From Dickeya solani IPO 2222 (GTDB lineage: Bacteria > Pseudomonadota > Gammaproteobacteria > Enterobacterales > Enterobacteriaceae): 32,000 bases of DNA. Positions 4,611 to 20,171 of this stretch are shown one piece after another. Below the pieces are notes generated by a model. It ran no database searches. It was not told the DNA's origin and saw only the letters and a program-made list of their open reading frames with translations. Each line of letters starts with the position of its first letter. The first letter of the stretch is position 1. The position numbers were made by a program, and so were the translations under genes. The DNA is taken from assembly GCF_001644705.1 (NCBI RefSeq), contig NZ_CP015137.1, forward strand, positions 3,150,001-3,182,000, in the 5' to 3' direction.

Positions 4611-5375
4611 CTAATGATGGATGGTTTCCCAAAGCAGTTTTATCAACAGCGTAACTGCGAGTGTCAGAAAAAGACGCCGGATCCAGTGATTCCCCCCTTT
4701 TAAGGCCAGTTGTGTGCCAGCAATTGAACCGCAAATCGATGCGATGCCGAGTGGCACGGCAATACCGTAATTAATTAACCCGGCGGGAATCAGGAAAAAG
4801 AGTGTCGCGGAATTCGTTCCGAAGTTAACGACTTTGGCGCAAGCGGTGGCGCGCAGAAAATCGAAGTGAAAGAAACGGACGAAAAGGAATAACAGAAAAC
4901 TACCCGTGCCCGGGCCGATAAAACCGTCATAAAACCCGATGGCAAGCCCGAGTGCGGCCCCTTTGACGAGGTCTCGTTGTGTCGGTTCCCGGCTGGTGTC
5001 CTGACTGCCAAACCGGGGGCGAAACCAGGTGTAAGCCACCATGATCGTCAACACGACGATAATAACGGGGCGCATCCAGGACGATGGCATGAAATCCAGC
5101 ATTCGGATGCCGAGATAGGCTCCAGCAATGGCGGCCACGGCGGTGGGAAACATCAGCCGCCAGGGCAAACGCAATCGGGTAGCGAACTGCCGAACGGACA
5201 TTAAATGTCCCATCACGGACGAGAATTTGTCGATACCCATAATTTGTGCGGGCGTGAAGTGGGGAAGTATGCTGTAAAACATTGGCATGCTGATCAGCCC
5301 GCCTCCGCCGACCGCGGCATTGATGGCGCCTGCAATGAAAGCAATGGGAATAAGTATAAATAGCTCGTGCGCCAT
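4611..5375 (-). CDS. TSUP (TauE/SafE-like) family membrane permease
   Basis: A multi-TM protein with the two-fold internal repeat typical of TSUP proteins, including AGAINAAVGGGGL near the N-terminus and GFYDGFIGPGTGSF in the second half. I place the start at the Met of MAHELF (5375), preceded by AAGGA, rather than at 5420. Confidence 0.8.
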   Translation of the reverse strand: MAHELFILIPIAFIAGAINAAVGGGGLISMPMFYSILPHFTPAQIMGIDKFSSVMGHLMSVRQFATRLRLPWRLMFPTAVAAIAGAYLGIRMLDFMPSSWMRPVIIVVLTIMVAYTWFRPRFGSQDTSREPTQRDLVKGAALGLAIGFYDGFIGPGTGSFLLFLFVRFFHFDFLRATACAKVVNFGTNSATLFFLIPAGLINYGIAVPLGIASICGSIAGTQLALKGGNHWIRRLFLTLAVTLLIKLLWETIHH

Positions 5376-5591
5376 GATAAATCCTTTACTGATTAATCGC
5401 AGTCTTATGGTCCCCAACAAACACGATGTCGGAGACTAATGTGATACGTGAGCGCTATAAAACAGAGGTAATTAGTTTGTGTACCTATTGCCGATGCGGG
5501 TAAGCCATCAGCCGTTGTGTATCCGAATAACGTATTCAAAACGGCAGCAATCTTAGGTTGGACGGAACTGAGTGTCTAATATATATTTCTG

Positions 5592-5607
5592 GATGAATTG
5601 ATTCATC
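5592..5607. promoter_or_regulatory. Perfect palindrome GATGAAT-TG-ATTCATC upstream of the LysR gene
   Basis: 7-bp inverted arms with a 2-bp spacer, 12 nt upstream of ATG 5619, in the divergent TSUP/LysR intergenic region. Candidate operator. Confidence 0.35.
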
Positions 5608-5618
5608 TGGGGATATTA

Positions 5619-6503
5619 ATGGAGTTTCGCCATCTTCGTTATTTCGTTATGGTTGCCGAGGAATTGCATTTCACTCGTGCGGCGGCGCGTCTGAATATTG
5701 GTCAACCACCGCTTTCACAGCAGATTCAGGCGCTCGAAGCCGAGCTAAACGTTCAGTTGTTTCAGAGAACCCGACGGAGTGTGCGTCTGACGGAAGCGGG
5801 CGAGCACTTGCTGGTCCGCGCTCGCGAAATTTTGGGGGCAAGCGAGGAGGTAGCGATTGAATTGCAGCGAATTTCGCAAGGAGAAGCGGGAGAACTGAGG
5901 ATCAGTTTTACCTCCACAGGCCTGCTGGTTAAAGAGTTACGAGTGCCGCTGAGAACCTTCAGGGCGAAATATCCCGCCGTAAGGCTGACGCTGAAGGAAA
6001 TGTTCACTCACCTTCAGTTTGCCGCATTGCTGGCTGGCGATCTGGATATAGGTTATGTCCGTTTTAACGAACTGAAAGCGCCTGAAGGGTTAACGCTGCG
6101 TTTAGTCCGGCGTGACCGTTTGTGTCTTGTGTTGCCAGACGATCATCGGCTCGCCGGATGCGCTGAAGTCAGTATCGCCGAGGTTCGAGACGAACCTTTC
6201 ATAGGCTACCCGGTTAAAGCGGGGGCAAGTTTATCCGATTATGTGACCACGCTTTGCACGCGGGCAGGCTTTGTGCCTAACGTGACCCAGGAAGCGCGGG
6301 AAGCCATGACACAAATTGGACTGGTTGCTGCGGGAATGGGTGTTGCCGTCCTCCTGCAACCCATGGATCAATTACAGCCGAAAGGCGTATGTTTTGTTCC
6401 CTTGTCTGATGAAGGCGCCGAACTGTGCATGGCGTTGGTTACGCGGGAATCGGATAACTCGCCGCGAGTGCGCAATTTCGTCGAGTTGGTTTGCCAGGAA
6501 TGA
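5619..6503 (+). CDS. LysR-family transcriptional regulator
   Basis: The N-terminus MEFRHLRYFVMVAEELHFTRAAARLNIGQPPLSQQIQALE is the canonical LysR wHTH, and a C-terminal substrate-binding domain follows. It is divergent from the TSUP gene. Start chosen at ATG 5619, after GGGGA. Confidence 0.9.
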   Translation: MEFRHLRYFVMVAEELHFTRAAARLNIGQPPLSQQIQALEAELNVQLFQRTRRSVRLTEAGEHLLVRAREILGASEEVAIELQRISQGEAGELRISFTSTGLLVKELRVPLRTFRAKYPAVRLTLKEMFTHLQFAALLAGDLDIGYVRFNELKAPEGLTLRLVRRDRLCLVLPDDHRLAGCAEVSIAEVRDEPFIGYPVKAGASLSDYVTTLCTRAGFVPNVTQEAREAMTQIGLVAAGMGVAVLLQPMDQLQPKGVCFVPLSDEGAELCMALVTRESDNSPRVRNFVELVCQE

Positions 6504-6930
6504 TGCTGTCTTGGTTTTTTCGTCAGAACTCATTGCGATTAGCCATAAAATTTTCTGATATTTCCCGCTATACAAAGCTGGGTAAAACTGTATTTTAAAA
6601 TAATGCTTTTCCTCTTTGGTGGTGTTAATCGGTTAATGCTTTCTTTAGGCTGTTTTCCGTGTCTATCGGCAACTGTATTGTGAGTCAATATATAATGGCC
6701 TGTCTGTCTGGTCGCGCTTGATACCCAAAAAGGCTTTCTGGCCGGGCTTTCTTGCGGGAGTAGTTTTGCACTTGATATGGAAATGACAAGGTAATGATTA
6801 TCTCTACGGCAAGTCGGGTAGGGTGACAATCAACGCTGAAACGGCGCTACCCTACAGCCGGCGGATTCTTGTCGGCTGGCTAACGACATAGCTGCACAGG
6901 GATAATAATTAGCCTCATAAGGATGAAATC

Positions 6931-7653
6931 ATGCAAGACCGGCTCGATACGCCACCGGGAACATCGGCCCCCGGTCTGATATGGCTGGAACAGGTTAGCC
7001 ACGCTTATCCCTCCTCGGTAGCATCTCACCCGGTTCTGCATAATGTTTCCCTGCTGGTTGACGCGGGGCAGAGTTGCGCCATCGTTGGCGCTTCCGGCTC
7101 AGGCAAAAGCACGCTGCTGAACATTATCGGGCTGCTCGATAAACCCACATCGGGGCGATTGTGGCTGAATGGCCGCGACATGGCGCAGGCCTCGACCGAT
7201 GAACGCGCCAGAATACGCAACCAGACTATCGGGTTCGTTTTTCAGAGCTTTAATCTACTGCCGCGTCTTACCGTGCTGGATAACGCGGCGCTGCCGTTGC
7301 TCTATCGCGGTTACTCTCGTCGTGATGCCCATCAGGCGGCCAGACGGCAACTGGAACACGTCGGGCTGGCTGAGCGCCTCCATTACCGCCCGGCGGATCT
7401 GTCCGGCGGCCAGCGACAGCGTGTCGCCATCGCCCGTGCCCTCACCGGCGAGCCGTCACTGCTGCTGGCCGATGAGCCTACCGGCAATCTCGATAGCCAG
7501 ACCGCCGGCGATATTCTGTCGTTGTTGCTGACGCTGAACCGGGAGCAAGGGGTGACGCTGGTGATGGTCACGCATGACGAATCCATCGCCCGGCAGATGC
7601 AGCGTCGTATTCAGGTGAGCGATGGTTACGTTCAGGAATACAGTAATAGTTAA
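6931..7653 (+). CDS. ABC transporter ATP-binding protein, MacB/LolD/DevA type
   Basis: Walker A GASGSGKST, Q-loop, signature LSGGQRQR, Walker B LLLADEPT and H-loop VTHD are all present. The sequence style (GFVFQSFNLLP..TVLDN) matches the MacB/LolD subgroup. AAGGA SD. Confidence 0.92.
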   Translation: MQDRLDTPPGTSAPGLIWLEQVSHAYPSSVASHPVLHNVSLLVDAGQSCAIVGASGSGKSTLLNIIGLLDKPTSGRLWLNGRDMAQASTDERARIRNQTIGFVFQSFNLLPRLTVLDNAALPLLYRGYSRRDAHQAARRQLEHVGLAERLHYRPADLSGGQRQRVAIARALTGEPSLLLADEPTGNLDSQTAGDILSLLLTLNREQGVTLVMVTHDESIARQMQRRIQVSDGYVQEYSNS

Positions 7654-7803
7654 ATATTTTTGTATGGTTACTAATTTATTTGTAAAGATTTGGTCGGATG
7701 AGTCGATATTGACTAGCGGCAGAGTTTCTGACTTATTGCCTTATTCTATAAAAGGATGCTGTCTTTTTTGCTGACGGCGAAAACGAAACCAAGGGAGGTT
7801 TCC

Positions 7804-8211
7804 ATGTATCTTAACTCATTAAAAAAATTGTTTCTTATTAGTGCGCTGGCTCTGGGTGCGGTCTCTCAGGCGAACGCGGCAAGCTGCGGTCCGACCCGCG
7901 TGACTGTTCCGGTATCGGGAACGGTTAATCCTCAGACAGAAGTGCAGATCTATTCCCAAACGTACAACTGCTCGGCCTACCTGATGGCGTCTTTAACGCC
8001 GAATTTTGGTTCCTCTTCCGTTTCTCTGTCGTTGACGCTCAAGCTGTATCAGCAGGTGGGTGGCAGCTGGCGTAGCGTCAGTGAAGGCCGCAATGTTTCC
8101 TATCAGATGGGCAGCACCGGCGGTACTTACAAACTGGTCGTATTCAATAGCAACACCAGTGGTAACGCTCTCAACTGGACCGGAAACTATAAATCCCCTC
8201 TCAACAACTAA
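7804..8211 (+). CDS. Small secreted protein of unknown family (135 aa precursor, about 110 aa mature)
   Basis: Strong SD AAGGGAGG 5 nt before ATG 7804. The signal peptide MYLNSLKKLFLISALALGAVSQANA has an A-N-A cleavage motif. The mature part is rich in Ser/Thr/Asn/Gly, has two Cys, and has no His or Asp. I recognise no family. Confidence 0.75.
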   Translation: MYLNSLKKLFLISALALGAVSQANAASCGPTRVTVPVSGTVNPQTEVQIYSQTYNCSAYLMASLTPNFGSSSVSLSLTLKLYQQVGGSWRSVSEGRNVSYQMGSTGGTYKLVVFNSNTSGNALNWTGNYKSPLNN

Positions 8212-8223
8212 TTGACAGGGAAA

Positions 8224-8259
8224 TGACCCACACCGTTTTTCATTGAAAGGTGTGGGTCA
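8224..8259 (+). terminator. Perfect 11-bp stem-loop just after the small secreted-protein gene (attenuator or mRNA stabiliser candidate)
   Basis: TGACCCACACC (8224-8234) and GGTGTGGGTCA (8249-8259) are exact reverse complements with a 14-nt loop. The stem starts 13 nt after the stop codon. There is no downstream U-run, so this is not a textbook intrinsic terminator. Confidence 0.5.
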
Positions 8260-8287
8260 GTTAACAGTGCGAATCAGGGAGGATACC

Positions 8288-8392
8288 GTGAGCATTCAAA
8301 TTTCATCCGTGACGGCGCAGAGACAATCAGCCGGGCGCTTCTCTCGTCTGGTTTCTGTCTCTCGTGTTGTGACGGAAAAACCCGTTTCCTGA
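8288..8392 (+). CDS. Candidate 34-aa small ORF (MSIQISSVTAQRQSAGRFSRLVSVSRVVTEKPVS)
   Basis: GTG start 4 nt after a strong SD-like AGGGAGGA (8276-8283), inside the otherwise unassigned spacer between the small-protein gene and the permease. The only support is the SD and the open frame. Confidence 0.2.
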   Translation: MSIQISSVTAQRQSAGRFSRLVSVSRVVTEKPVS

Positions 8393-8536
8393 TGCGATAA
8401 AGGCTCAGTATTTGTGTTAAAGCGCGACAGCGACGGAGACGACGCCAAAGAGATACATTCCGCGACACTGCCGGAAGAACGGAACGCAGCCCTGCCTGAC
8501 GTTGTTCACTCTCCCTACGGCGCTTCTCTGCACTAC

Positions 8537-9706
8537 ATGCTGACCGAACCGTTGGATAGCCTGCGCCAGTTAGGGCGACGGGCAGTGCTGGCGTTGCTGG
8601 GTATCACGGTGGGCTGCGCTGCGGTGGTGGCGTTGCTGAACATCGGCCACAACGCGGCGGCGGACGCCATCAGCGCCTTTCGCGATATGGGCAGCGATAT
8701 GCTGGTCGCCGGCTTTGCCGACACGGCGGAAACGAACCAACGCCGTGCGCCCGCCACGCTGGATATTGATGCGCTGACCCGCGCCTTGCCTGGAATCCGA
8801 CACGCTGCGCCGCTTATCCTCACCTCGACCAATGCCCGTCTGCACCGACGTCAATTTAATGCCATCGTGGCCGGCGCCGGCGCCGAACTGGCGCAAGTAC
8901 TGGCGTTGCGGGTCGCTCATGGCCGCTTCCTGACCCGTTACGATCGTCAGAGCACCTACGCCGTGCTCGGCGCGAAAACGGCCGTCGAACTGGGCGAGGC
9001 CGGTACGCCGGTAGCGCTTGGCAGCCGGATACAGCTTGGCGGCTATCTGTTTGAAGTGGTGGGTATTTTACAAGAGCAGGGGCAAAACCCGCTGCTGCCG
9101 GTGCCGGTGGACGAGGCTATCATCTTGCCTATCGAAGGAATGCACCGTCTGCTTTCCTCTCCTGAAATCAGCAGCGTGGTGGCGCGTAGCCGCCGTAGCG
9201 AGACCTTGCAGCAAGAGGCGGCAGCGCTGCGTGATTACCTGATGGCACTGGCGCCGGGACGCGAGGTGGCGGTGCAAATCTCGCAACAACTGCTGGAAGG
9301 AATGGAGCGGCAGTCGCGCACCTTTACCTGGCTGCTCGCCGGATTAGGCGGCGTTTCGCTGCTGATGGGGGGCGTGGGCGTGATGAACGTGATGGTGATG
9401 AACATTGCCGGGCGGCGGCGAGAAATCGGTGTGCGCATGGCGCTGGGCGCTCGCCCAAAAGATATTGGCCGCCTGTTTCTGCTGGAAGCGGCGGCGTTGG
9501 CGATCGCCGGCGCGCTGGCCGGCGCGATTGTCGGCCTGCTCGCCGCCTGGTTGTTTGTGAAAATGTCCGGCTGGGCTTTTTCTTTGTCCCCGCTGTCGCT
9601 GCCTTTGGGCATTGTCAGTTCACTGGCGGTCGGGGTGTTCTTTGGTCTGCATCCCGCCCTGACGGCGGCCCGGCTGGAACCTGTTAAGGCGCTGCGTGAT
9701 GATTAG
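8537..9706 (+). CDS. ABC transporter permease, MacB/FtsX type (4 TM plus periplasmic domain)
   Basis: TM1 (AVLALLGITVGCAAVVALLNIG) is followed by a periplasmic domain of roughly 230 aa. A C-terminal FtsX-type 3-TM bundle follows (LLAGLGGVSLLMGGVGVMNVMVMNIAGRRREIGVRMALGA...), ending in P..AARLEPVKALR. The start is uncertain: ATG 8537 fits the family N-terminus but has no SD, and the ORF is open from GTG 8414. Confidence 0.85.
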   Translation: MLTEPLDSLRQLGRRAVLALLGITVGCAAVVALLNIGHNAAADAISAFRDMGSDMLVAGFADTAETNQRRAPATLDIDALTRALPGIRHAAPLILTSTNARLHRRQFNAIVAGAGAELAQVLALRVAHGRFLTRYDRQSTYAVLGAKTAVELGEAGTPVALGSRIQLGGYLFEVVGILQEQGQNPLLPVPVDEAIILPIEGMHRLLSSPEISSVVARSRRSETLQQEAAALRDYLMALAPGREVAVQISQQLLEGMERQSRTFTWLLAGLGGVSLLMGGVGVMNVMVMNIAGRRREIGVRMALGARPKDIGRLFLLEAAALAIAGALAGAIVGLLAAWLFVKMSGWAFSLSPLSLPLGIVSSLAVGVFFGLHPALTAARLEPVKALRDD

Positions 9707-11165
9707 AACGGTTGCCCTCGTCCTGTTGCTGCTGGTCGGTCTGGATGCGTCCGCGGCGCTGACCGACCGCTTGTTGCCTTCTCAGGCTACCCGCGCGGGC
9801 AGCAGCAGTTTGTCGCCCAACGCGCAGATTATCGATCTGACGTTAAGCGACGCCATTTACCTTGGCTTGCGCGATAACCGCGCCATTCGTAGCGCCTATC
9901 TGGATCGCGTCGCGCAGAAATTTGACCTGCTGGTGGCCGAAGACCGCTTTACCCCCAAGCTGGTGTTGAGCGGCAGCTATCTGGCGGCGCGCAATCAGGA
10001 TGACCGCTACCGTCAGGGCGAAATCGCGCCCACCACCACGCTGCTGACGCCTTACGGCACCCGCGTGAGTCTGGCCTGGACGCACCGTTCCACGCAGGCG
10101 GATGAAGCCGGCCGTACCCGCAATGACGGCGCCACGATCACGGTTATCCAGCCGTTGCTGCGCGGTGCCGGTAAGGAGATAGCCACCGCGCCGGTGCGGC
10201 TGGCAAAGCTGTCCGAACAGATCAACCGGCTGACGCTGAAAGCCACCGTCGCCCGGACTATCACCCAAATCATCATGGCTTATCGGGCGTTGTTGCAGAC
10301 GCAGGAGCAATTGAACATTGCCGACGAAGCGCTGGCGCGCTCACGCCAGTTGCTGGAGGTAAACCGCTCGCTGATCGCCGCCGGGCGTATGGCTGAATTC
10401 GAAATCATCCAGACGGAAGCGGATGTCGCGACTCAGGAATTATCCCGTGAAGAAGCGCTCAATCAGCTTGACGTTAGCCGTCTGGCGCTGTTGCAACTGC
10501 TGGCGCTGGATTTGCGCACGCCGGTCCGCGCGACCGAACGGCTGCAGGCTGGTCGCGTTGACGTCAGCCCCGCCGCGGCGTTGTCTCAGGCCGAAGCGCT
10601 GCAACCCGCCTACCTTACACAGCTGATCGTCGATAAGCAGGCCGACATTAATCTGGCGGTGGCGCGCGATGACCGCCTGTGGGATGTGTCGCTGGTGGGG
10701 GGGACCAGCCAACTGCGCGACCGCAGCAGCGCGGTGGGCAGTTCGCGCAATTGGGAGAACTATGTCGGCGTGCAGGTGGACATTCCCATCGGCGATATGA
10801 GTCAACAGCAGGCGGAAGTACAAGCGCGGGTGAACGTGCAGAATCAACGCATTCAGCTTGTCGAAACCCGCCAGCAACTGGAGCGCGACGTCGCCAACGC
10901 CGTGCGTGATATCAGCACCCGCTGGCGCCAGTTTGAGATTGCCCAGCGCGCGCGGGATCTTTCGCGTCGCAAGCTGGATATTGAACGGGAAAAACTCACC
11001 GCCGGGCGCTCCAGCAACTTTCAGGTGCTGAGTTTTGAAACCGATCTGCGTAACGCCGAAAACGCCCGGCTTAGCGCTTTGATTACCTATCTCAACACCC
11101 AGGCCGATCTGGACCAAACCTTGGGTACGACGCTGCAAAGCTGGGATATCTCTCTCAATGATTAA
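9699..11165 (+). CDS. TolC-like outer-membrane efflux protein (OMF)
   Basis: Signal peptide MIRTVALVLLLLVGLDASA. Two-repeat coiled-coil/beta architecture with OEP-style sequence (LSDAIYLGLRDNRAIRSA..., ...RLSALITYLNTQADLDQTLGT). The start (ATG 9699 or GTG 9696) overlaps the permease stop codon, which suggests translational coupling. Confidence 0.88.
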   Translation: MIRTVALVLLLLVGLDASAALTDRLLPSQATRAGSSSLSPNAQIIDLTLSDAIYLGLRDNRAIRSAYLDRVAQKFDLLVAEDRFTPKLVLSGSYLAARNQDDRYRQGEIAPTTTLLTPYGTRVSLAWTHRSTQADEAGRTRNDGATITVIQPLLRGAGKEIATAPVRLAKLSEQINRLTLKATVARTITQIIMAYRALLQTQEQLNIADEALARSRQLLEVNRSLIAAGRMAEFEIIQTEADVATQELSREEALNQLDVSRLALLQLLALDLRTPVRATERLQAGRVDVSPAAALSQAEALQPAYLTQLIVDKQADINLAVARDDRLWDVSLVGGTSQLRDRSSAVGSSRNWENYVGVQVDIPIGDMSQQQAEVQARVNVQNQRIQLVETRQQLERDVANAVRDISTRWRQFEIAQRARDLSRRKLDIEREKLTAGRSSNFQVLSFETDLRNAENARLSALITYLNTQADLDQTLGTTLQSWDISLND

Positions 11166-12453
11166 TCTTTCACGATACCGGCAGCGCCCGCTGCGCCAGC
11201 GCGCGGCATTGATAGGTGTCTTTGCGCTGGGCGCGGTGGCGATGGTCTGGAAGCTATGGTCGCCAGCCACCAGCGCCATGCCGCAGACACAATGGCTGCG
11301 GGTTGAGCCGCAGGTGTTGGAAAACCGTCTGGGGTTGACCGGGCGGATTCAGGCCGCCGCCACACTGACGCTCTCCGCGCCGTTTGAAGGCATGATCAAA
11401 GACGTGCTGGTCAACGAAGGGCAACGTGTGGAAGCGAGCCAGCCGTTGCTGACGCTGGACACCGGCCTGCTGGATATCCAACTGCGCCAGGCGCTGGCCG
11501 ACTTGCTAAAAGCGCAGCGCACGGTGCAGGACATGCAGCATTGGGAACAAGGTCAGGAGGTGGCGCGGGCGCGACGCACCCTGAATAACGCGCGTATCAG
11601 CCTGGCGAACACCGAGGCCAACCTGAAAGATACCCGCACCCTGTTTGAGCGCGGCATCGTAGCCAGAATGGAAGTCGACGCGCTGGCTCAACAGGCTCAG
11701 GCGCAACGGCTGGATCTGTCCGCCGCGCAGGATGAATTGCAGGCTGCGCTGGACCGCGGGCGTGGTGAAAACCGTCAGATCGCCGAGATGGAACAGGCTA
11801 ACGCTCAGTCGCGCCATCAAACGTTGATGGCGATGCAGGCGCAGCAGGTGGTGCGTGCGCCGTTTGCGGGCGTACTGGTGCGCCCCGCCGCGCCGGAAAC
11901 CGATAAACGCCAGCCATTGCAGCCGGGGATGCGGGTCAGTCAGGGGATGCCGCTGTTCGGACTGGTCAATCCCGACCATCTACAGGTCGTGGCCAGTCTT
12001 GACGAGGCCGACTTGCATCAGTTGCACGAAGGGATGGCGGTGGACATCAGCGGCGACGGTTTTGCCGGGCTGACGCTGTACGGCCATATCCAGACCATCG
12101 GTATTGAAGGGCGCGTCGCTGACGTGGCCGGCGCCGGCGCCCGCTACGATGTACTGGTCACTGTCGCTACCCCGTCAGCGGAACAGCGCCAGCGCCTGCG
12201 GTTAGGGATGAGCGCCCGGCTGTCGGTGGTCACGTATCGCAACGAGCATGGCATCGCCGTTCCTGCCGAGGCGTTGCACACGGACGAGGCCGGTAACAGC
12301 TATATTCTCTTTCGTCAGGATGCCGACAGTGCGCCTCAGCGGCGTACGGTAGTGCCGGGCGTTGCTGTGCCGCAGGGCGTGGAAGTAAAAGGATTACCTG
12401 ATGAAGGCCCTGGGTTCGTCGAAATCACCAATAACAGCGGCGCTGCTGAATGA
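11158..12453 (+). CDS. HlyD-family membrane-fusion (periplasmic adaptor) protein
   Basis: N-terminal TM anchor, lipoyl-like motif (G.I..V.V.EGQRV...QPLLTLD), long coiled-coil hairpin, and C-terminal beta-barrel. Its ATG overlaps the OMF stop codon (ATGATTAA). Confidence 0.88.
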   Translation: MINLSRYRQRPLRQRAALIGVFALGAVAMVWKLWSPATSAMPQTQWLRVEPQVLENRLGLTGRIQAAATLTLSAPFEGMIKDVLVNEGQRVEASQPLLTLDTGLLDIQLRQALADLLKAQRTVQDMQHWEQGQEVARARRTLNNARISLANTEANLKDTRTLFERGIVARMEVDALAQQAQAQRLDLSAAQDELQAALDRGRGENRQIAEMEQANAQSRHQTLMAMQAQQVVRAPFAGVLVRPAAPETDKRQPLQPGMRVSQGMPLFGLVNPDHLQVVASLDEADLHQLHEGMAVDISGDGFAGLTLYGHIQTIGIEGRVADVAGAGARYDVLVTVATPSAEQRQRLRLGMSARLSVVTYRNEHGIAVPAEALHTDEAGNSYILFRQDADSAPQRRTVVPGVAVPQGVEVKGLPDEGPGFVEITNNSGAAE

Positions 12454-12464
12454 AACGGGCCGAT

Positions 12465-12524
12465 GCATAACGGTCAGATGAATAACGGTCAGATTCCTAA
12501 TGGTCAGATTCCTAATGATCAGAT
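12465..12524. repeat. Four tandem 15-bp repeats (core TAAYGRTCAGAT)
   Basis: GCATAACGGTCAGAT / GAATAACGGTCAGAT / TCCTAATGGTCAGAT / TCCTAATGATCAGAT, head to tail. The array starts 12 nt after the MFP stop codon, in a convergent intergenic region. Confidence 0.9.
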
Positions 12525-12601
12525 GATAGCGGGCTTGCAGGGCCGGTCGCGGCATCCACGGATTGAAAACGTCGCTTATCAATGGCGGATTGTTGAAATG
12601 G

Positions 12602-13129
12602 TTATCTCGTCAGTTCCCATTCATCAAACTGTTTATTAATGTCTTTAATCGAGGCGAGTCTGATTTTGGGTAGGGTCAACGCGTCAAACAGCTCAGCATA
12701 GTGTTTCCTGTTTTTAGGCGTGACGGCGGTAATATGATGGAACATTTTCCAGTTCAGCCGGTCTATCCCCCCTTCCAGCGCACCATAGCGCTGGTATTGA
12801 AATAGCGTTCGGTTCACATAGCGCAATAAGCTCGACAGCGTGGAGACATCCAGCAGAATAAGTCCCGTGGCGCGAGACAAACGCTGTGGCAGGCATCTTT
12901 TGTAATTTCCATCGATGACCCAACTTTCCTGATTTATTGCCATATCATGCAATAAAAGGAACTCATGAAAAGGGCGTTCTTGCCAGTTTGAATGGGGGAC
13001 ATGAAAAAGCTGGTCCAGATGGATAACGTCCAGATTACGTTTCCGCGCAATCGCATTCGCAAGGGTCGATTTACCGCTGTTCGATGGCCCCATAATGCAA
13101 ATTCTGTCGCCTAAATCTGAAAGCTTCAT
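12602..13129 (-). CDS. P-loop NTPase / adenylate-kinase-like protein (topology-modulation FlaR-like family)
   Basis: Walker A GPSNSGKST right after the N-terminus, and about 175 aa in total, as is typical of small AAA/kinase-fold proteins. Start chosen at MKLSDL (13129), preceded by GGAGAA. Visibly AT-richer than the flanking genes. Confidence 0.7.
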   Translation of the reverse strand: MKLSDLGDRICIMGPSNSGKSTLANAIARKRNLDVIHLDQLFHVPHSNWQERPFHEFLLLHDMAINQESWVIDGNYKRCLPQRLSRATGLILLDVSTLSSLLRYVNRTLFQYQRYGALEGGIDRLNWKMFHHITAVTPKNRKHYAELFDALTLPKIRLASIKDINKQFDEWELTR

Positions 13130-13609
13130 CGTCTTCTCCATACCGCGTGGTGTCTGGTATTTGGGTGAGCGCGAGCTGCCACCACGGCGATTTATCATTT
13201 TAACGATCTCTCGCCTGTTCGGGTTGACGAAGTAGTAAAAGATTTTGAAAGTGAGGGGAACGTAGAAAAAATAAAGCAGCCTGGCGGTTGTATTGACTGT
13301 TGTAATGCCAGATTGACGACCGGGATGGTTTATAGTTATTCGTCCGTTTTAGCCGTAAGGAACCTTAACCGTACTGCTGCTGAGGTCCACCGTCAGAGAA
13401 CCGGAGTTATTACCGGCGGTAACGGGCGATAACGACGCCGTTTTGTCGGAGTTGCCACATTAGTTCAGTACCGGGAGTCGCCGAAGAATCAAATCCAACG
13501 ATATATATCGGCATAATATCAATACCCGCTGTCACAATGTTACGAGAGCCTTCGCTGAAACGTCAGGATATTAATTCGCTCTTAGTTTTTCGATGTTATT
13601 AATATATTG

Positions 13610-13655
13610 ACGCCAGACTGTCTCTTCCATAGTGAAAGGATGGTCTGGCGTTTTT
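13610..13655 (+). terminator. Hairpin ACGCCAGAC...GTCTGGCGT followed by TTTT
   Basis: 9-bp perfect stem with a 24-nt loop. A T-run follows on the plus strand only. It lies 3-4 nt from the stop codon of the minus-strand hydrolase gene, so it may act bidirectionally. Confidence 0.45.
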
Positions 13656-13658
13656 AGG

Positions 13659-14732
13659 TTATATCCCAGCGAAATCGAATGGTGGCGCTTTTTTAAATTG
13701 ATCCGAAACCTGCCCAGAGTAAATCTTACTTTGATTCGGCCCCAGATCCAGTTTCATGGCGTTCCCATCGTGTGGAGAGAAATCCACCTTTTTCAGGTCG
13801 ACCCAAAAGATATTAGGAGACATGGCCGACTCAAAGAAATATTGCATGGATTTATGATCAATCACGCTACGCCACCGGGTTGAGGCGATATTCGGTTCAG
13901 CCGACAGGGCATAACCGTAAGGGACGGAAACATTCCGTATCACACTGAAGGCACTGGCTAATGCTTTATCATGCCCTTCATTTTTGGGAATATGATTCAC
14001 ATAAAATGAGGCGCGAACAAAGCGATCCGCCGCCCGATTGGTGCCCGGTAGCATGACGCTTCCGCCTATCTGTTCCCAGTAGGCATTAAGCGCCAATTGC
14101 TGGTTGAACACCGGCGAATTGGTCATTACCTGGTATTCCCGGTTATGGTGAATGACGGGTTTACCATCGATATATTCAATAATTGCGCTGTCGCCTGACG
14201 AATCAGACAAAGACAGGTGTAGTTTTGCAAGCCGCTCTTCGTCAGGAACATTGGCTGTGACCAACGTAAATTTATCCTGCTTCAGCGCCTGAACCGCTTC
14301 TTCGACGGTGGCAAAGTTATCCAGCACATATTGCGCCCAGGCGGCGACACTCAGCCCCGGTTTTTCAGCGGTAGGCGCAGTGGTTGGATATTCTGATTCC
14401 ACCAGCCACAGCAAATTGGCGGCTAGCCCTTTCTCATTTATGCCATCTGTTGTCGATATATCATAAGCCGCTGCGATGACGCTGCCATATTTAGAGACCC
14501 ACTTAAGTGTGTGTTGTCCCCCTTCGCCAGAACGATGTAACTCGCGTGGGAATACCCATAAGTTTGTTCCCACATCTTTTTTCCAGTCCATCGAGCGAGC
14601 GGTGATGGTTTCATTATTATCACCCAGATAAACTAGTCGCGTGCAGGCAAACGTTACGGATGAACTAAGTATTAAAGCGCCCAGCGATATCATGCAAGCA
14701 ACAGAATTAACGTGCTTATTATTTCTCTTCAT
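13659..14732 (-). CDS. Choloylglycine-hydrolase-family Ntn hydrolase (penicillin V acylase / AHL acylase-like), secreted
   Basis: Signal peptide ending ...SVTFA followed by CTRLVY. A Cys becoming residue 1 after cleavage is the hallmark nucleophile of this family. The RSMDW motif occurs shortly after. 357 aa. Confidence 0.85.
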   Translation of the reverse strand: MKRNNKHVNSVACMISLGALILSSSVTFACTRLVYLGDNNETITARSMDWKKDVGTNLWVFPRELHRSGEGGQHTLKWVSKYGSVIAAAYDISTTDGINEKGLAANLLWLVESEYPTTAPTAEKPGLSVAAWAQYVLDNFATVEEAVQALKQDKFTLVTANVPDEERLAKLHLSLSDSSGDSAIIEYIDGKPVIHHNREYQVMTNSPVFNQQLALNAYWEQIGGSVMLPGTNRAADRFVRASFYVNHIPKNEGHDKALASAFSVIRNVSVPYGYALSAEPNIASTRWRSVIDHKSMQYFFESAMSPNIFWVDLKKVDFSPHDGNAMKLDLGPNQSKIYSGQVSDQFKKAPPFDFAGI

Positions 14733-14943
14733 GTTATTTCCTTTCGGCTTTTTAATGTCATTTTATTATAGGTGGCATTTGACGCTGCATTAGTGTTTTT
14801 TAAGGTTTTCATTGTTGATTGTTTTTAGTGGATTAATTTTTTTATTTTTATATTTTAGTCGAAATAATTTTTTGTTTTTATTTCTTCCCCTACTTTAGTT
14901 ATTCGTCGGATCTGAATTGCGATAATTGCTGGTTTTTTAATAG

Positions 14944-14987
14944 GTAATGTTTTAATCGATAATATTTTAATCGGTAATGTTTAAGCG
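14944..14987. repeat. Three tandem ~15-bp AT-rich repeats (RTAATRTTTTAATCG)
   Basis: GTAATGTTTTAATCG / ATAATATTTTAATCG / GTAATGTTTAAGCG. They sit inside a very AT-rich 450-bp divergent intergenic region with many A/T tracts. Confidence 0.75.
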
Positions 14988-15184
14988 CTTCTGCGAGGGA
15001 ATATCTTTTTTTTGTAATATTAAGTCTGCGGTTAGTGTGAGAATGGTTTCAGTTCTTCATAGATAAATTCAATGTTTTCTTCAACGTTAGGCATAGCGGC
15101 GGTAATCCCTCTAACCATGGTGACAGGATCTGTCACTACGTTGCTCTAGACTACGTTTTCTTTTCACCACGAAGGAAAATTATC

Positions 15185-15586: not shown

Positions 15587-16104
15587 ATGAGGCGTATTCA
15601 ATACGATAAGTACGGTGGGCCGGAGTTGATGCGGATCGAAGACTTCGAGCTGGCTGCACCGGGAAAAGGTGAAGTGGCGGTGCAGGTCAGGTTTGCCGCC
15701 ATCAACCCAATCGACAGGAAGGTTCGCAACGGCTATCTCAAGATAGTCACGGGGAAAGGCTTACCGATCTGTCGACGCTCAGTGAACGGTTCGATGTGGT
15801 CTACGACGCGGCTGCCGTGATGACGACCGCAGAAGGTCTCGGCCTGCTGCGTAACAAGGGGGCTTTTCTTGATCTTAACCCGACACCGGGCACGTTCATG
15901 CTATCCCTCTTCAACCTACGACTGAAGCCGATTGTCTGCACTCCACGGTCCGAGATACTCGATAGCCTCGCTCATGCAGCGGAGGCGGGAAATCTGCGAC
16001 TCTCGGTTGCCAGGGTTGTACCACTGAGCGACGCAATCCCGTTTGTCACCGCTCTTGAAGCGGGCCACAGGCTCGGTGGGAAGGGCCTTGTCGTGATGGA
16101 TTGA
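15587..16104 (+). pseudogene. MDR-superfamily NADPH:quinone-oxidoreductase-like gene with a large internal deletion and a frame change
   Basis: The first 60 aa (MRRIQYDKYGGPELMRIEDFELAAPGKGEVAVQVRFAAINPIDRKVRNG) form a normal GroES-like N-terminus. From about 15760 a different frame reads ...LTDLSTLSERFDVVYDAA...GKGLVVMD, a normal C-terminus. The roughly 150 residues in between, including the nucleotide-binding motif, are missing. Confidence 0.75.
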
Positions 16105-16415: not shown

Positions 16416-17822
16416 CTATTTAGTCGATATTGCCAAATGACTTGATTTTCCAATGGTTAAGCTGGCCACGGCAGTGATAGCGCCATAAACCAATGCACTC
16501 AGTGCGACGATCTTGAAAAGCGATGGCAAGTCAGCATCAAAATGCGTAACGGCCAGCCATCCTGCAAAAGCCGCTATCGCCATGCGCGCGGTTCCGGCTA
16601 ATACGGGCCATAGCACGCGTTTCGCCCCTTGACCGGCAAAATAGAGCGCCATGCCGATGCCAATAGCGCCATAGAACGGCGCTACGTTTTGCAGGTAGCG
16701 GGTCCCCGCCGTCAGGATGGCGTGATCGTCACTAAAGAGCGTGAGCCAAAGGCGTGGATATGCCGCCACGCCAAGCCCGATTAACTCCGTAAACGTAAAC
16801 GCAACCGCAGCGCCAATCCAGGTAATACGTTGTGCGCGTTGCACTTGCCCCGCCCCGAGATTGATGCCAACCATGGTCATAACGGCCGTGCCAAGACCAA
16901 ACAGCAGAGGGATTTGCAGATAATCTAGTCTTGAGGCGATGCCATACCCGGCAATGGCATCAGGCCCAAACCGGCCTACAACGGCGGTCACAACGGCAAC
17001 GGTTAAATTGATCTGCACGGTACCGATAGCGGATAGCAAACCCACGCCAAGGATATCCTTGAACAATCGTGAACTCAGCGACGCCGGCGATAGCCTGATA
17101 ACACTACTGGCTGACCGCATGTGCCTTACCAGCAATAGGGTTGCGAAGAGGTAATAGACCAGAATCGCGATGCCGGCCCCGGCGACGCCAAATGATGGAA
17201 TTGGTCCCCACCCCAAAATCAAGGCGGGTGACAATGGCAGTAGGATGGCGGCCCCCAACAGCGTGATACGTGCGGGAGTCTTCGTATCGCCCGCTCCGCG
17301 TAGCGCGGCTGACAACAAGGCAACCACCCAAATTAGCGGCGACCCTACAAAGACGAGGTTCGAATAGCTCATGGCCGCAGAAAGCGCAGGCCCGTTAACG
17401 CCCATCAAGTGATACAGCGCATTACCGCCGATGATGATAATGGCAGCAAAGGCTGCCCCTACAACAGCGGCAATAATAACGCCATGCCATACCAGCGCCT
17501 GCGCATCCTGCCATCGACCGGCGCCGGATGCCCGCGATATCGCCGATGATAATCCCCCGCCGATGCCGCCGTTCGCCATCATCTGCATTAGCATCAAGAC
17601 GGGAAATACCACCGCCACCCCGGCTAATACATCAGCGCCAAGCGAGCTTACAAAGTAGGTTTCCACTATCCCCACCAGCGCCTGAACCACCAGTACCGCA
17701 ATCGTCGGCAACGCCAGACGAAGCATGACCGGCAGGATGGGGCCGACCAGAATATCCGTGGTCAATTGTTTGGCGGTCGGCTCATGGCTTCGATTTGCGT
17801 TCGGTAATAATTTAGTCATCAT
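16416..17822 (-). CDS. MATE-family efflux transporter
   Basis: 468 aa with about 12 TM segments. The MATE-style N-terminal region (LRLALPTIAVLVVQALVGIVETYFVSSLGADVLAGVAV) and internal duplication are present. Confidence 0.88.
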   Translation of the reverse strand: MMTKLLPNANRSHEPTAKQLTTDILVGPILPVMLRLALPTIAVLVVQALVGIVETYFVSSLGADVLAGVAVVFPVLMLMQMMANGGIGGGLSSAISRASGAGRWQDAQALVWHGVIIAAVVGAAFAAIIIIGGNALYHLMGVNGPALSAAMSYSNLVFVGSPLIWVVALLSAALRGAGDTKTPARITLLGAAILLPLSPALILGWGPIPSFGVAGAGIAILVYYLFATLLLVRHMRSASSVIRLSPASLSSRLFKDILGVGLLSAIGTVQINLTVAVVTAVVGRFGPDAIAGYGIASRLDYLQIPLLFGLGTAVMTMVGINLGAGQVQRAQRITWIGAAVAFTFTELIGLGVAAYPRLWLTLFSDDHAILTAGTRYLQNVAPFYGAIGIGMALYFAGQGAKRVLWPVLAGTARMAIAAFAGWLAVTHFDADLPSLFKIVALSALVYGAITAVASLTIGKSSHLAISTK

Positions 17823-17854
17823 GCAGGCCCAACATTCAGTGTTATGAATAAAAT

Positions 17855-19336
17855 TTAAACGCCGCTATTGCTGTGCTGACCGGGAGCAGACGCCCCCGTT
17901 TCACCGGGTTGCCAGCCGCCGCCGAGCGCTTTGAACGCCGCGACCGCCGCGCGTGCGGATTCGGCTTGCGCCTGAAGTCGCGCATCAGAAGCCCGCAGCA
18001 TACTTTCGTCGGCTTGCAGCACCTCTATCAGGCTAAGGGTGCCGTGCTGATAGGCCGCAAACGCGGCATCCCGCGCCCGGCTGAGTGAATCAACCCCTTG
18101 CGTCAGCACGCGGGCCTGCTCCTCATTGTTAACCAGCGCCGAGAAGGCGTTTTCCACATCTTCGGTAGCCCGCAATACCGCCAGCCGATAGGCCGCCAGC
18201 ATCTCAGCCTCCTGGCCTTTGGCCTGGTTGATCTGCGCATTGATGCGGCCAAAATCGAACAGCCGCCAGCGCAAACCGATCACACCGGACGATTGGCTGG
18301 CGCCGTTGCTAAACAAGTTGCCGCTGGATACCGTCGTCGCGCTGCCAAGCAGCCCACTCAGGGAAAATTTGGGGTAATACTCTGCAACGGCGACACCAAT
18401 ACGCGCGTTGGATGCGGCTAAGCGACGCTCAGCCACGATCAGGTCCGGTCGGCGCCGAAGCAGTTCGCCCGGCGTGCCGGTCGCGGCGATTTGCGGCGCG
18501 GCGGGAATGGCGCTCGTCTCGGCAAGCACTGCCCGGTGCGTGCCCGGCGCTGACCCCAGCATCACATCCAGTGCGTTCATTGCTGTATCCAGCGCAGTTT
18601 GTAAAACGGGCACCGATGCCTGCACCTGCGCCAACGCGCCTTCGGCCTGTCTTACCTGAAGCTCCGCCGCCAACCCTTTGTCATACAAGCGGTTGATGGT
18701 TGCGAGTAACTCCTGCTGCGTTTGCACTTGCCGCCGGGCGACATTCAGACGGGCCTGTAATCCACGAATCGTGATGTAGATGTCGGCGGTTTGTGCGGTT
18801 ACCGCCAGACGTGTTGCCACCACTCCCGCTTCAGACGCCTGATACTCGGCAAGAGCCGCTTCCCGCCCGCGGCGCAGGCCGCCGAACACATCCAGTTCCC
18901 AACTGGCACCGAGATTGGCCTCGTAAGAATTACCGTAGCGGTCGAAACCCGGCGTCGAATTCAATACTTTCCCCAACGGGGTTTCGACAGACTGGTAGGC
19001 ACGGCCCGCCTGACCGGAAATGTTGCCGGAAGGCAGCAGTGCGGCATTCGCCGCGCCAAGACCGGCGCGGGCCTGCACCACGCGCGCGGAAGCCTGCGCA
19101 AGATCGAGATTCTGCTGCAACGCCTGCGTGATAAATCGGGTTAATTGCGGATCGCCGAACCCCTCCCACCACGTCAGAAGCTCGGCACGGGCGGCAGCAT
19201 GTCGTTGATTAACAGCCTCCTGACCAAGGTATTTTTCCTGCATTGACACAGCAGGCCGGGTGTAATCAGGGCCGACAGCACAACCGGCTAACAAACCAGC
19301 CACGGTAAGGACGATAACGGGAGACTTGGGTAACAT
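17855..19336 (-). CDS. RND-type efflux outer-membrane lipoprotein, NodT family
   Basis: Lipobox LLAGC followed by the GPDYTRP motif characteristic of NodT/OprM-type OMFs. About 490 aa. Start chosen at MLPKSPV (19336). Confidence 0.9.
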   Translation of the reverse strand: MLPKSPVIVLTVAGLLAGCAVGPDYTRPAVSMQEKYLGQEAVNQRHAAARAELLTWWEGFGDPQLTRFITQALQQNLDLAQASARVVQARAGLGAANAALLPSGNISGQAGRAYQSVETPLGKVLNSTPGFDRYGNSYEANLGASWELDVFGGLRRGREAALAEYQASEAGVVATRLAVTAQTADIYITIRGLQARLNVARRQVQTQQELLATINRLYDKGLAAELQVRQAEGALAQVQASVPVLQTALDTAMNALDVMLGSAPGTHRAVLAETSAIPAAPQIAATGTPGELLRRRPDLIVAERRLAASNARIGVAVAEYYPKFSLSGLLGSATTVSSGNLFSNGASQSSGVIGLRWRLFDFGRINAQINQAKGQEAEMLAAYRLAVLRATEDVENAFSALVNNEEQARVLTQGVDSLSRARDAAFAAYQHGTLSLIEVLQADESMLRASDARLQAQAESARAAVAAFKALGGGWQPGETGASAPGQHSNSGV

Positions 19337-19366
19337 ATTTTTCCACCATAGACATTGCACCGATTT

Positions 19367-19390
19367 GTGACCATATTACAAATTGGTCAC
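19367..19390. promoter_or_regulatory. Candidate TetR operator O1: GTGACCATATTACAAATTGGTCAC
   Basis: GTGACCA / TGGTCAC are perfect 7-bp inverted arms. The site sits in the divergent OMF/tetR intergenic region and is nearly identical to the site at 20100-20123. Confidence 0.7.
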
Positions 19391-19460
19391 TCGTTGTCAA
19401 TGAGAAGGTCAGGGGGTAAACTTCCCCCTTGTGTATTACGTCAGGGGCAAATTGCAAACT

Positions 19461-20078
19461 ATGAGTAAAGAAAACCCTTATCCCGTGTCGAACCGGGGCC
19501 CGGCTGATCATGATGTACGGGATCAGATAGTGAGCGCCGCGACTGAGCACTTCAGACTTTATGGCTATGAAAAAACTACGGTTTCTGACCTCGCCAAATC
19601 CATCGGTTTTTCCAAGGCCTACATCTACAAGTTCTTCTCATCCAAGCAGGTGATTGGCGAGATGATTTGTGCCAACTGCCTGCGAGAGATCGAAGCAGAA
19701 GTTCGCGCCGCCGTTGAGGAGGCCGATCAGCCGCCGGAAAAATTGCGACAAATGTTTAAGGCCGCCGTCGAAGCCAGCCTTCGTTTGTTCTTCCATGACA
19801 GAAAGCTGTATGAAATTGCCGCCTCCTCCGCCAGCGAGCGCTGGCAGTCGGCGATCGCCTATGAAGAACGCATCCAGACACTGCTGCATGATATTTTGCT
19901 GGAAGGCCGACAGAGCGGGGATTTTGAACGAAAAACGCCGCTTGATGAAACGGCAGCTGCGATTTATCTCGTCATGCGCCCTTATCTCAACCCACTGATA
20001 TTGCAGCACAGTTTCGATTACGCCGATAAGGCGCCGGCACAGCTGTCCAGCCTGATACTGCGTAGCTTATCGCCATAG
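19461..20078 (+). CDS. TetR/AcrR-family transcriptional repressor
   Basis: N-terminal HTH (IVSAATEHFRLYGYEKTTVSDLAKSIGFSKAYIYKFFSSKQ) and about 205 aa in total. Located between the OMF gene and the MFP-RND genes. Confidence 0.9.
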   Translation: MSKENPYPVSNRGPADHDVRDQIVSAATEHFRLYGYEKTTVSDLAKSIGFSKAYIYKFFSSKQVIGEMICANCLREIEAEVRAAVEEADQPPEKLRQMFKAAVEASLRLFFHDRKLYEIAASSASERWQSAIAYEERIQTLLHDILLEGRQSGDFERKTPLDETAAAIYLVMRPYLNPLILQHSFDYADKAPAQLSSLILRSLSP

Positions 20079-20099
20079 TTCAGCAACGAACATGAAATG

Positions 20100-20123
20100 G
20101 TGACTATTGACTAAATTGGTCAC
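20100..20123. promoter_or_regulatory. Candidate TetR operator O2: GTGACTATTGACTAAATTGGTCAC
   Basis: Same 24-bp frame and outer arms as O1. It contains TTGACT (a -35-like hexamer) and lies 49 nt upstream of the MFP start codon. Confidence 0.65.
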
Positions 20124-20171
20124 TTGATTGAAGATGGGTCTCCTGATTAATCCGTCAAGGGGACTCTACAT

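Follow-up and report, generated by a model that had tools for sequence, protein, structure and literature searches.

A MacB-type pump cluster of Dickeya solani with an embedded small signal-peptide protein: a candidate two-step export module with exchangeable cargo

Why does a gene for a small signal-peptide protein lie between the ATPase and permease genes of an export pump? The question is raised by positions 6931-12453 of a 32,000-nucleotide stretch of Dickeya solani IPO 2222 DNA (contig NZ_CP015137.1, positions 3,150,001 to 3,182,000; hereafter the window), where five co-oriented genes code for an ATP-binding cassette (ABC) ATPase, a 135-aa signal-peptide protein, a MacB_PCD/FtsX permease, a TolC-like outer-membrane factor (OMF) and a HlyD-type adaptor. 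In a preliminary description of this DNA the embedded protein was proposed to be the cargo of the pump. The linkage part of that proposal stands: the module recurs, related pumps have partners of the same kind, and a functional linkage of small protein and pump is well supported by sequence comparison. The step from linked protein to cargo, that is, its passage through the pump and a role outside, is one that we infer. The five genes are accordingly read, with a confidence slightly short of even, as a self-contained, horizontally mobile, two-step protein export module with the small protein as exchangeable cargo. This reading is favored because the pump chassis is conserved while its partner proteins are interchangeable, mutually unrelated and alike in size and charge, and because the small gene carries signals for over-expression, as would be expected of cargo cassettes under the physical constraints of a single route.

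Profile matches were to Pfam and NCBIfam, NCBIfam assignments were judged against the equivalog cut-off of each model, and coordinates without a locus number are positions in the window. The coordinates confirmed the co-orientation and order of the five genes given in the preliminary description, and the profile searches confirmed the four transporter parts. The features of the cluster are as follows.

6504..6930, plus strand: AT-rich leader/promoter region of 427 nt (GC 0.433), upstream of the ATPase gene
6931..7653, plus strand: ABC ATPase of 240 aa, a stand-alone nucleotide-binding domain (NBD) of MacB/LolD/FtsE type (ABC_tran, E 6.5e-36)
7679..7711, plus strand: conserved intergenic block, candidate internal promoter (TTTGTAAAG ... 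CGATATTG)
7793..7798, plus strand: Shine-Dalgarno (SD) sequence GGGAGG of the small gene (anti-SD duplex -12.0 kcal/mol)
7804..8211, plus strand: small protein gene, an open reading frame (ORF) of 135 aa with signal peptide and mature domain
8225..8258, plus strand: stem-loop 3' of the stop codon of the small gene (GACCCACACC ... GGTGTGGGTC)
8414..9706, plus strand: MacB-type permease with periplasmic core domain and FtsX transmembrane bundle (MacB_PCD, E 1.9e-29; FtsX, 3.8e-18)
9699..11165, plus strand: TolC-like OMF of 488 aa with a non-lipoprotein signal peptide (two OEP domains, E 3.1e-37)
11158..12453, plus strand: periplasmic adaptor (membrane-fusion protein) of 431 aa with an N-terminal membrane anchor (HlyD_3, E 3.7e-18; HlyD_D23, 4.9e-13)

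The permease starts between GTG 8414 and ATG 8537, giving a protein of 389-430 aa, and its homology to relatives begins 5' of ATG 8537. It matched solved MacB structures from end to end (5gko, E 1.5e-39; 5nik, 5.6e-35; also 5lil). Two features of the MacB superfamily were found: a permease with the MacB core domain between transmembrane segments 1 and 2 and a C-terminal FtsX bundle, and a partner NBD, membrane-fusion adaptor and OMF encoded with it in one co-oriented cluster. The split MacB-type architecture with an OMF of its own, as first described, was upheld by these profile and structure matches, and the stop/start overlaps of the last three genes measure 8 nt at each junction (ATGATTAG between permease and OMF, ATGATTAA between OMF and adaptor).

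Assignment to a named system was attempted with the equivalog models. The top NCBIfam models for the ATPase were LolD, YbbA, the N-terminal half of MacB and DarD, each under its cut-off; the OMF scored 83 bits on TIGR01844, also under the cut-off, and the adaptor 99.5 bits on TIGR01730 (RND_mfp), over the cut-off of 94.9. A MacAB orthologue was rejected on the split genes and on the scores with NF007826 (ATPase 221.3 and permease 140.1, cut-off 966) and with the MacA model NF008606 (18.1, cut-off 342). LolCDE was rejected on LolD (245.6, cut-off 307.75) and lolCE (26.8, cut-off 362), on the missing lipobox, and on the presence of OMF and adaptor, unlike Lol; the DevBCA glycolipid exporter on DevA (201.2, cut-off 295.8) and DevB (39.6, cut-off 129); and type I secretion of the HlyB/HlyD/TolC kind, whose exporters have an ABC_membrane-type domain and take unfolded cytoplasmic substrates with a C-terminal or double-glycine signal, on the FtsX/MacB-type permease, the Sec signal of the candidate cargo and 29 against 208 bits on TIGR01843. 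Since no equivalog cut-off was reached for MacB, MacA, LolD/LolCE, DevA/DevB or type I HlyD, the pump is classed by its sequence as a MacB superfamily member matching no named system. Transporters of MacB type have no transmembrane path for their substrates and expel periplasmic substrates through the duct formed by adaptor and OMF (PMC5985334, PMC8277102), and Sec-dependent proteins, namely STII and dispersin/CexE, are among their cargoes (PMC5985334, PMC8277102, PMC7943197).

The signal peptide of the small protein (7804-7878, MYLNSLKKLFLISALALGAVSQANA) was judged by eye from the sequence. It has K7K8, a hydrophobic segment L9-V20 and the cleavage region SQANA↓ASC, and is kept in the homologues. 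The mature protein has 110 aa, a mass of 11.7 kDa and an isoelectric point (pI) of 9.3, and its only two cysteines, Cys3 and Cys31 in mature numbering, are invariant in all homologues. A lipoprotein was rejected because N-A-A-S before Cys28 breaks a PS51257-type lipobox at position -4 and because ANA↓AS conforms to the classical site of signal peptidase I. The protein had been called an orphan and proved to be one in the searches made: no match was found in Pfam (E<=10), in NCBIfam or among PDB sequences. A HMMER search of 1.84 billion cluster representatives returned two relatives only, a 58%-identical protein and a protein of a Comamonas metagenome-assembled genome (MAG; E 2e-14), so that the homologues range over Dickeya spp., a second lineage (the 58% protein) and one Comamonas MAG. 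The members of its 90% cluster come from D. solani, D. dadantii, D. fangzhongdai and D. undicola and are all labelled hypothetical; one hypothetical protein of D. solani is 99% identical to it. Weak HMMER matches to Fn3, Big_13, Y_Y_Y and PPC repeats in giant proteins were put down to generic beta-sandwich or compositional similarity and not to homology. Copies on plasmids were not found in the plasmid records searched; phage records were not searched. Within Dickeya the small protein is under strong constraint, because the mature protein is ~98% identical between species, against 91% for the permease (D. solani versus D. undicola).

The mature domain was modelled with AlphaFold2 from a seven-sequence alignment as an eight-strand beta sandwich (pLDDT 87.5, pTM 0.81). 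Two models of the protein were compared with the PDB by Foldseek, and YPM (1pm4) ranked first with both (TM-score 0.56-0.65, E 5e-5 to 1e-4, identity 16-17%). Below it came Ena spore-appendage subunits, the claudin-binding C-terminal domain of C. perfringens enterotoxin (CPE), PPC/collagen-binding domains, PliG, GOLD domains and PirA, and the FlhE structure 4qxl was found at ranks 18 and 49 (TM-score 0.45-0.47). The modelled fold class is a small jelly-roll-like sandwich, often a binding module, and fixes neither family nor function. YPM, the Yersinia pseudotuberculosis mitogen, is a secreted enterobacterial protein, small and Sec-dependent, with a jelly-roll fold; the match is one of fold class only, with no signal at the sequence level and with many unrelated jelly-rolls at TM-scores of 0.5-0.6, and a superantigen function is not implied by it.

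The place of the small gene in the cluster looks like that of an inserted cassette. The gap between the ATPase and permease genes, within which the small gene lies, measures ~880 bases in Dickeya and ~670 in the second lineage (L016); in all other relatives examined the ATPase gene is followed directly by the permease gene, with an overlap of a few nt or, in L014 and L022, a gap of 12-25 nt. The GC content is 0.507 in the small gene and 0.373 in its upstream spacer, and 0.60-0.64 in the four transporter genes.

The TTTGTAAAG and CGATATTG blocks in this spacer are kept between Dickeya and L016 although the small proteins are just 57% identical, and the stretch 7679-7711 is a candidate internal promoter of the small gene. 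Its putative hexamers TTGTAA and GATATT are 19 nt apart, a suboptimal spacing, and were missed by a consensus scan; the number of promoter and terminator sites in that scan was not above that in shuffled sequence, and the one sigma-70-like site of the leader (6772-6801) was not above chance expectation. The leader and the intergenic spacers gave zero Rfam matches in a search for riboswitches and known RNAs. That the small gene has the strongest SD of the cluster, as had been remarked, was borne out by the anti-SD duplex energies (-12.0 kcal/mol, against -6.0 for the ATPase gene and -1.7 to -4.0 for the remaining genes). The stem-loop at 8225-8258 has a minimum free energy of -31.9 kcal/mol (z -3.55 versus shuffles) with no U-run after it, and a hairpin of other sequence with a T-run occupies the same position in L001 and L016; it is a candidate attenuator or mRNA-stabilizing hairpin. 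Together these signals predict that the small protein is made in excess over the pump, and because strong SD, conserved upstream block and hairpin would all imply more small protein than pump, they suggest a product rather than a stoichiometric subunit. The far stronger SD and the trailing hairpin speak likewise against the main alternative, which we regard as unlikely: a small protein acting as accessory or gating partner of the pump in the periplasm (a plug, a chaperone or a substrate adaptor), with the real cargo encoded elsewhere or a small molecule. The strong conservation of the protein relative to the permease within Dickeya would suit such a partner.

Whether small gene and pump travel together was seen in the second lineage. 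The L016 contig holds a complete ATPase-small protein-permease-OMF-adaptor module in the same order as the window (identities of 70, 57, 71, 79 and 66%, respectively), and the five-gene order is also kept in four Dickeya species. The flanks in L016 are unlike those of the window: a siderophore-type uptake system lies at one end of the module and a phospholipase/ankyrin pair at the opposite end; in L001 an IS6-like fragment lies upstream. Because the module is intact at 57-79% identity amid wholly different neighbors, it is concluded from these contigs that the five genes move as a unit. Co-occurrence of the homologues with the transporter set, as expected from the preliminary description, was thus found for the 58% homologue, which lies in the complete module, and not for the Comamonas MAG homologue (P0003, L007:4195-6989), which lies 8 nt downstream of a GNAT acetyltransferase gene and converges with an operon for an OMF, a resistance-nodulation-division (RND) pump and an adaptor. 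As a side observation, the pair in L016 (L016:17064-19221, minus strand), a phospholipase-like gene then an ankyrin-repeat gene a few kb from the module, resembles an antibacterial effector/immunity pair.

These findings bear on a second alternative, that small protein and pump have no direct transport link, the former staying in the periplasm as an ordinary protein or leaving by the Out type II secretion system (T2SS), with its gene simply lodged in the operon, and the pump exporting a lipid, peptide or metabolite. It would be in keeping with the occurrence of P0003 without a MacB system, with the foreign base composition of the cassette, with the many non-protein substrates of MacB-family pumps (PMC8277102) and with the small signal-peptide proteins SvfA, SvfB, VirK and YoaJ of D. 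dadantii, which are proven Out substrates (10.1101/2021.08.03.454866). Against it, the gene order is kept across about 30-43% protein divergence and into another genome context, and metabolite biosynthetic genes do not flank the module. A passive hitch-hiker is also made unlikely by the recurrence of small exported proteins at most of the related pumps described below, with the same family in both Beta- and Gammaproteobacteria, and the absence of a link is therefore held to be improbable.

Hundreds of permease relatives were found at 55-78% identity. They come from Brenneria, Pectobacterium, other Dickeya, Lonsdalea, Photorhabdus and Kosakonia, from Pseudomonas cichorii/syringae/viridiflava, Ralstonia pseudosolanacearum, Burkholderia ubonensis and Azotobacter, and, on plasmids, from Citrobacter, Pantoea, Rahnella, Deefgea and Enterobacter. 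For closer study about 19 related pump loci were taken by similarity rank, not at random, and in most of them a small signal-peptide protein adjoins the four pump genes; none is annotated on the Deefgea, Rahnella and Enterobacter plasmids, for which the PLSDB annotation is incomplete.

The partners fall into several families. Family A (~150 aa) was found in Brenneria, Burkholderia, Pectobacterium, Photorhabdus, D. dianthicola and Ralstonia, everywhere but in Photorhabdus paired with family B (~255-265 aa, without signal peptide); family C (~156 aa) in Dryocola, Lonsdalea and the Citrobacter and Pantoea plasmids, always paired with family D (~315-320 aa, without signal peptide). Family E is the small protein of the window and family F was found in P. 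fildesensis. Partners of the FlhE family (PF06366, E 4e-9 and 1e-6) occur in Photorhabdus, P. cichorii, Kosakonia and a Pantoea plasmid, in the last with one at either flank of the pump. Relative to the pump genes, the gene of the partner may be upstream, downstream, inside, divergent or convergent, and often forms a transcription unit of its own; the same partner family recurs with the pump in both Beta- and Gammaproteobacteria. Mutual homology of the five small families was not seen in profile-profile comparison (hhalign probabilities <=11%), nor is a common ancestry detectable by that method. All five have mature proteins of 109-133 aa with exactly two cysteines and a pI of 7.7-10.3. Families A-D gave no significant sequence match to solved structures. 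Neither family A nor the window protein was accepted as DUF4879/Svf, since Pfam gave no match, despite a UniRef label to that effect on one Photorhabdus member.

On an unbootstrapped neighbor-joining (NJ) tree of the permeases, in which the Lonsdalea entry (wrong reading frame) is to be disregarded, the partner types are scattered. The Brenneria permease, which has A and B partners, is 78% identical to that of Dickeya, against 71% for the permease of the other E-type pump. Partner type and permease tree do not run in parallel, which indicates that partner cassettes have been exchanged on a conserved pump chassis. A transporter set conserved without the small protein had been counted beforehand as speaking against its role as cargo, and such sets do exist, the Brenneria pump being one; since an unrelated small exported protein takes the place of the window protein there, its absence fits exchangeable cargo more than refutation.

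The same comparison was set against the accessory-partner alternative. That nearly every related pump has one small protein, uniform in size, cysteine count and charge, is what such a partner would also give. Its lack of co-phylogeny with the permease, the loose gene arrangements with often separate transcription units, and the mutual unrelatedness of five families (hhalign <=11%) beside permeases that are 55-78% identical are less readily reconciled with a subunit.

The FlhE-family partners keep the accessory alternative alive, some partners being true members of that family (PF06366) and the Dickeya model being weakly like FlhE 4qxl (TM-score 0.45). FlhE is known as a periplasmic, not a secreted, protein, and a plug- or chaperone-like role has been proposed for it at the flagellar export apparatus. 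The genes beside related pumps are listed here.

FlhE-family genes: L012:4353-4778 (minus strand), L011:4535-4948 (minus strand), L015:4445-4867 (minus strand), L022:3633-4091, L022:8930-9382

In P. cichorii a flagellar gene cluster holds the pump together with its FlhE gene, between cheR and flgB; on the Pantoea agglomerans plasmid the pump is flanked by two FlhE genes and lies beside flgE. The FlhE partners are divergent in Kosakonia, Photorhabdus and P. cichorii. From their positions, the FlhE genes at pumps may reflect a link to flagellar export or an unrecognized role of FlhE-like proteins.

The proteins without signal peptide at related loci have 175-322 aa, are acidic (the Deefgea protein with pI 8.8 excepted) and contain no or nearly no cysteine. 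Their N-termini read MxINTS..., with 40-64% S/T/N/Q in the first 50 residues; we take this start to recall the flagellin N-terminus. They gave no Pfam or PDB match, and families B and D are unexplained by any of the readings considered.

Family B genes: L008:4476-5279, L009:10826-11614, L010:10138-10935 (minus strand), L013:2885-5217, L014:4439-5212
Family D genes: L002:5251-6219, L003:5269-6222, L017:3284-4225, L019:3749-4708
Further gene for a protein without signal peptide beside a related pump: L020:9934-10461 (minus strand)

In D. dianthicola (L013:2885-5217) there are three tandem family B copies, 87-94% identical, upstream of a paralogous pump. Some modules look decayed: the C-type gene of Lonsdalea iberica has an in-frame stop (L002:~4730-5204), the P. 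fildesensis OMF is broken into two ORFs (L004:7947-9605), the Ralstonia OMF is shortened to 204 aa (L014:7175-7789) and a Pectobacterium D-type gene is in two ORFs of 168 aa and 107 aa (L010:4300-5142).

Variable small secreted proteins on a conserved exporter are also the usual bacteriocin pattern. The small protein could on that account be an envelope-acting toxin or bacteriocin, with the pump serving mainly for producer immunity by clearing the periplasm and export as a by-product; FtsX-family ABC systems of the lactococcin-972 or bacitracin type confer immunity by toxin clearance. The ATPase scored 200.6 bits on the lactococcin-972-type ABC model, under the cut-off, the modules are mobile, being found on IncFII and other plasmids and near insertion sequence elements, and YPM, the CPE C-terminal domain and PirA, all among the best fold matches, are toxin or receptor-binding modules. 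This explanation is nevertheless considered highly improbable: a separate immunity gene is lacking, the mature protein hardly varies among four Dickeya species, unlike arms-race toxins, and it has no sequence similarity to known bacteriocins.

For the export module with exchangeable cargo, the following sequence of events is proposed. The strong SD of the small gene, and probably a promoter of its own, would yield an excess of the 135-aa precursor, with the hairpin limiting read-through into the pump genes. The precursor would be exported by Sec and cleaved by signal peptidase I after ANA, and the basic 11.7 kDa beta sandwich would then fold in the periplasm with one disulfide, Cys3-Cys31. There it would be captured by the permease periplasmic domain together with the adaptor, and ATP-driven mechanotransmission would expel it through the dedicated TolC-like duct to the surface or the medium. 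By analogy with dispersin, the CPE C-terminal domain and YPM, it would most likely be a surface-coating or target-binding protein.

In size the small protein is near dispersin (10 kDa), the largest accepted cargo of a MacB-type pump (PMC5985334). Dispersin (10 kDa, 20 x 50 Å) has itself been proposed to lie near the upper size limit, and a jelly-roll of 11.7 kDa would be at or above a possible bound for folded cargo (PMC5985334); this is the first of several points that weigh against the cargo reading. The Out T2SS of Dickeya secretes small proteins with signal peptides (10.1101/2021.08.03.454866), the sole distant homologue, in the Comamonas MAG, faces an RND pump and is not beside a MacB system, and the partner of several relatives belongs to the FlhE family, with its periplasmic namesake. 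The strict pairing of the signal-peptide-less families B and D with A and C is left unexplained by a cargo, and the permease tree behind cassette exchange is an NJ tree without support values.

To our knowledge, few protein cargoes have been described for MacB-type pumps, namely STII and dispersin/CexE, with an acylation step in Aat/Cex, and how a mechanotransmission pump handles a folded protein of at least 10 kDa is a standing question. The module would be a compact genetic test case, with five genes, no acyltransferase and a candidate cargo inside the operon, in hosts (D. dadantii and D. solani) that are tractable pathogens. The comparison suggests that modules of this sort occur in many plant pathogens and differ in their small protein; among the carriers are Pectobacterium, Brenneria, Lonsdalea, Ralstonia, Pseudomonas cichorii/syringae and Burkholderia, as well as the Pantoea and Citrobacter plasmids. 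Taken together, the modules would be an unrecognized source of candidate surface proteins or effectors, and the same pattern may offer a way into the FlhE family, which is poorly understood.

A wider proposal, which at present is tentative and rather doubtful, is that of a broad, mobile, previously undescribed family of MacB-type secretion modules in plant- and insect-associated Proteobacteria, exporting interchangeable folded 12-14 kDa basic single-disulfide beta-sandwich proteins. If true, it would comprise at least five unrelated cargo families including FlhE-like ones, with a second acidic partner, presumably flagellin-like at its N-terminus, at many loci, and would amount to a two-step secretion pathway in its own right, equipped with a set of effectors of its own.

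Further features of the window lie on either side of the cluster.

4611-5420: TauE-family gene, in a divergent pair with the LysR gene
5598-6503: LysR gene, upstream of the cluster
12602-13198, minus strand: P-loop kinase-like gene
13659-14732, minus strand: choloylglycine-hydrolase-family gene with signal peptide
16416-17822, minus strand: MATE transporter
17855-19360, minus strand: OEP-family OMF
19431-20078, plus strand: TetR regulator
20172-21287, plus strand: adaptor
21284-24349, plus strand: AcrB-type RND pump

The argument drawn earlier from the neighboring LysR gene is weak, this gene being divergently paired with the TauE-family gene, and LysR as a dedicated regulator of the cluster is doubtful for the same reason. 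Just downstream of the module (12454-15000) the DNA is AT-rich (GC 0.43-0.48). Base composition changes at either end of the GC-rich pump genes, which suggests a mosaic, horizontally acquired region. A second efflux region (16416-24349) follows 4 kb downstream. A beta-ketoacyl synthase at 25248-26533 extends over two overlapping ORFs (25248-25766 and 25706-26533), with the N-terminal part of the ketoacyl-synt domain in one and its remainder and the C-terminal domain in the other, which suggests a frameshift or sequencing error. By eye, the overlapping ORFs 15587-15820 and 15796-16104 (15587-16104) look like halves of one oxidoreductase-like gene, possibly another frameshift.

How, then, does the module compare with known systems? 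With FlhE the window protein shares a small Sec-exported beta sandwich of comparable size, and FlhE-family genes occupy the equivalent spot beside related pumps; membership of that family was rejected (no PF06366 match at E<=10, hhalign probability 0.9%, TM-score 0.45-0.47). STII is a 48-residue peptide, whereas the Dickeya small protein is predicted to be a folded domain of 110 residues. MacB is moreover a fused NBD-permease working on the shared chromosomal TolC, in contrast to the separate NBD and dedicated OMF of Dickeya, where the putative cargo gene also lies inside the pump operon. The likeness to MacAB-TolC lies in the MacB-fold permease, matched over its full length by 5nik (5.6e-35), and in the cargo route, STII being periplasmic, Sec-delivered, disulfide-bonded and expelled through the OMF (PMC5985334). 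The Svf proteins of the Out T2SS come from the same genus and are likewise small, Sec-exported and variably present among species (10.1101/2021.08.03.454866); their genes are not in an export operon, in contrast to the small gene, and the window protein has no DUF4879 match.

Functionally, the closest known system is Aat/Cex of enteroaggregative and enterotoxigenic Escherichia coli (AatPABCD). The window pump shares its split MacB-type permease and ATPase with dedicated OMF and adaptor. The cargo there, dispersin/CexE, is a basic, Sec-dependent protein of 10-12 kDa that is cleaved by signal peptidase I, and its export takes two steps (PMC7943197, PMC5985334); for the window protein, export is proposed only. 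The systems differ in gene order, the small gene standing between ATPase and permease in Dickeya, and in AatD, an Lnt-like N-acyltransferase (PMC7943197) that was not found among the window ORFs scanned. An invariant glycine at the mature N-terminus is acylated in Aat/Cex, whereas ASCGP is predicted in Dickeya and AAC/ATC in the homologues, and a resemblance of the small protein to dispersin/CexE was not found (no Pfam match at E<=10). Membership of Aat/Cex is ruled out by the lack of AatD, of an N-terminal glycine and of dispersin homology. No description of the five-gene module, or of families A-F in this context, was found in full-text searches of a literature library, in agreement with the preliminary description as to gene order; cargo encoded beside a MacB-type pump, a less novel idea than had been implied, has its precedent in Aat/Cex. 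Protein export by a MacB-type tripartite pump is thus already known, and what would be new here is the Dickeya module with its embedded small gene.

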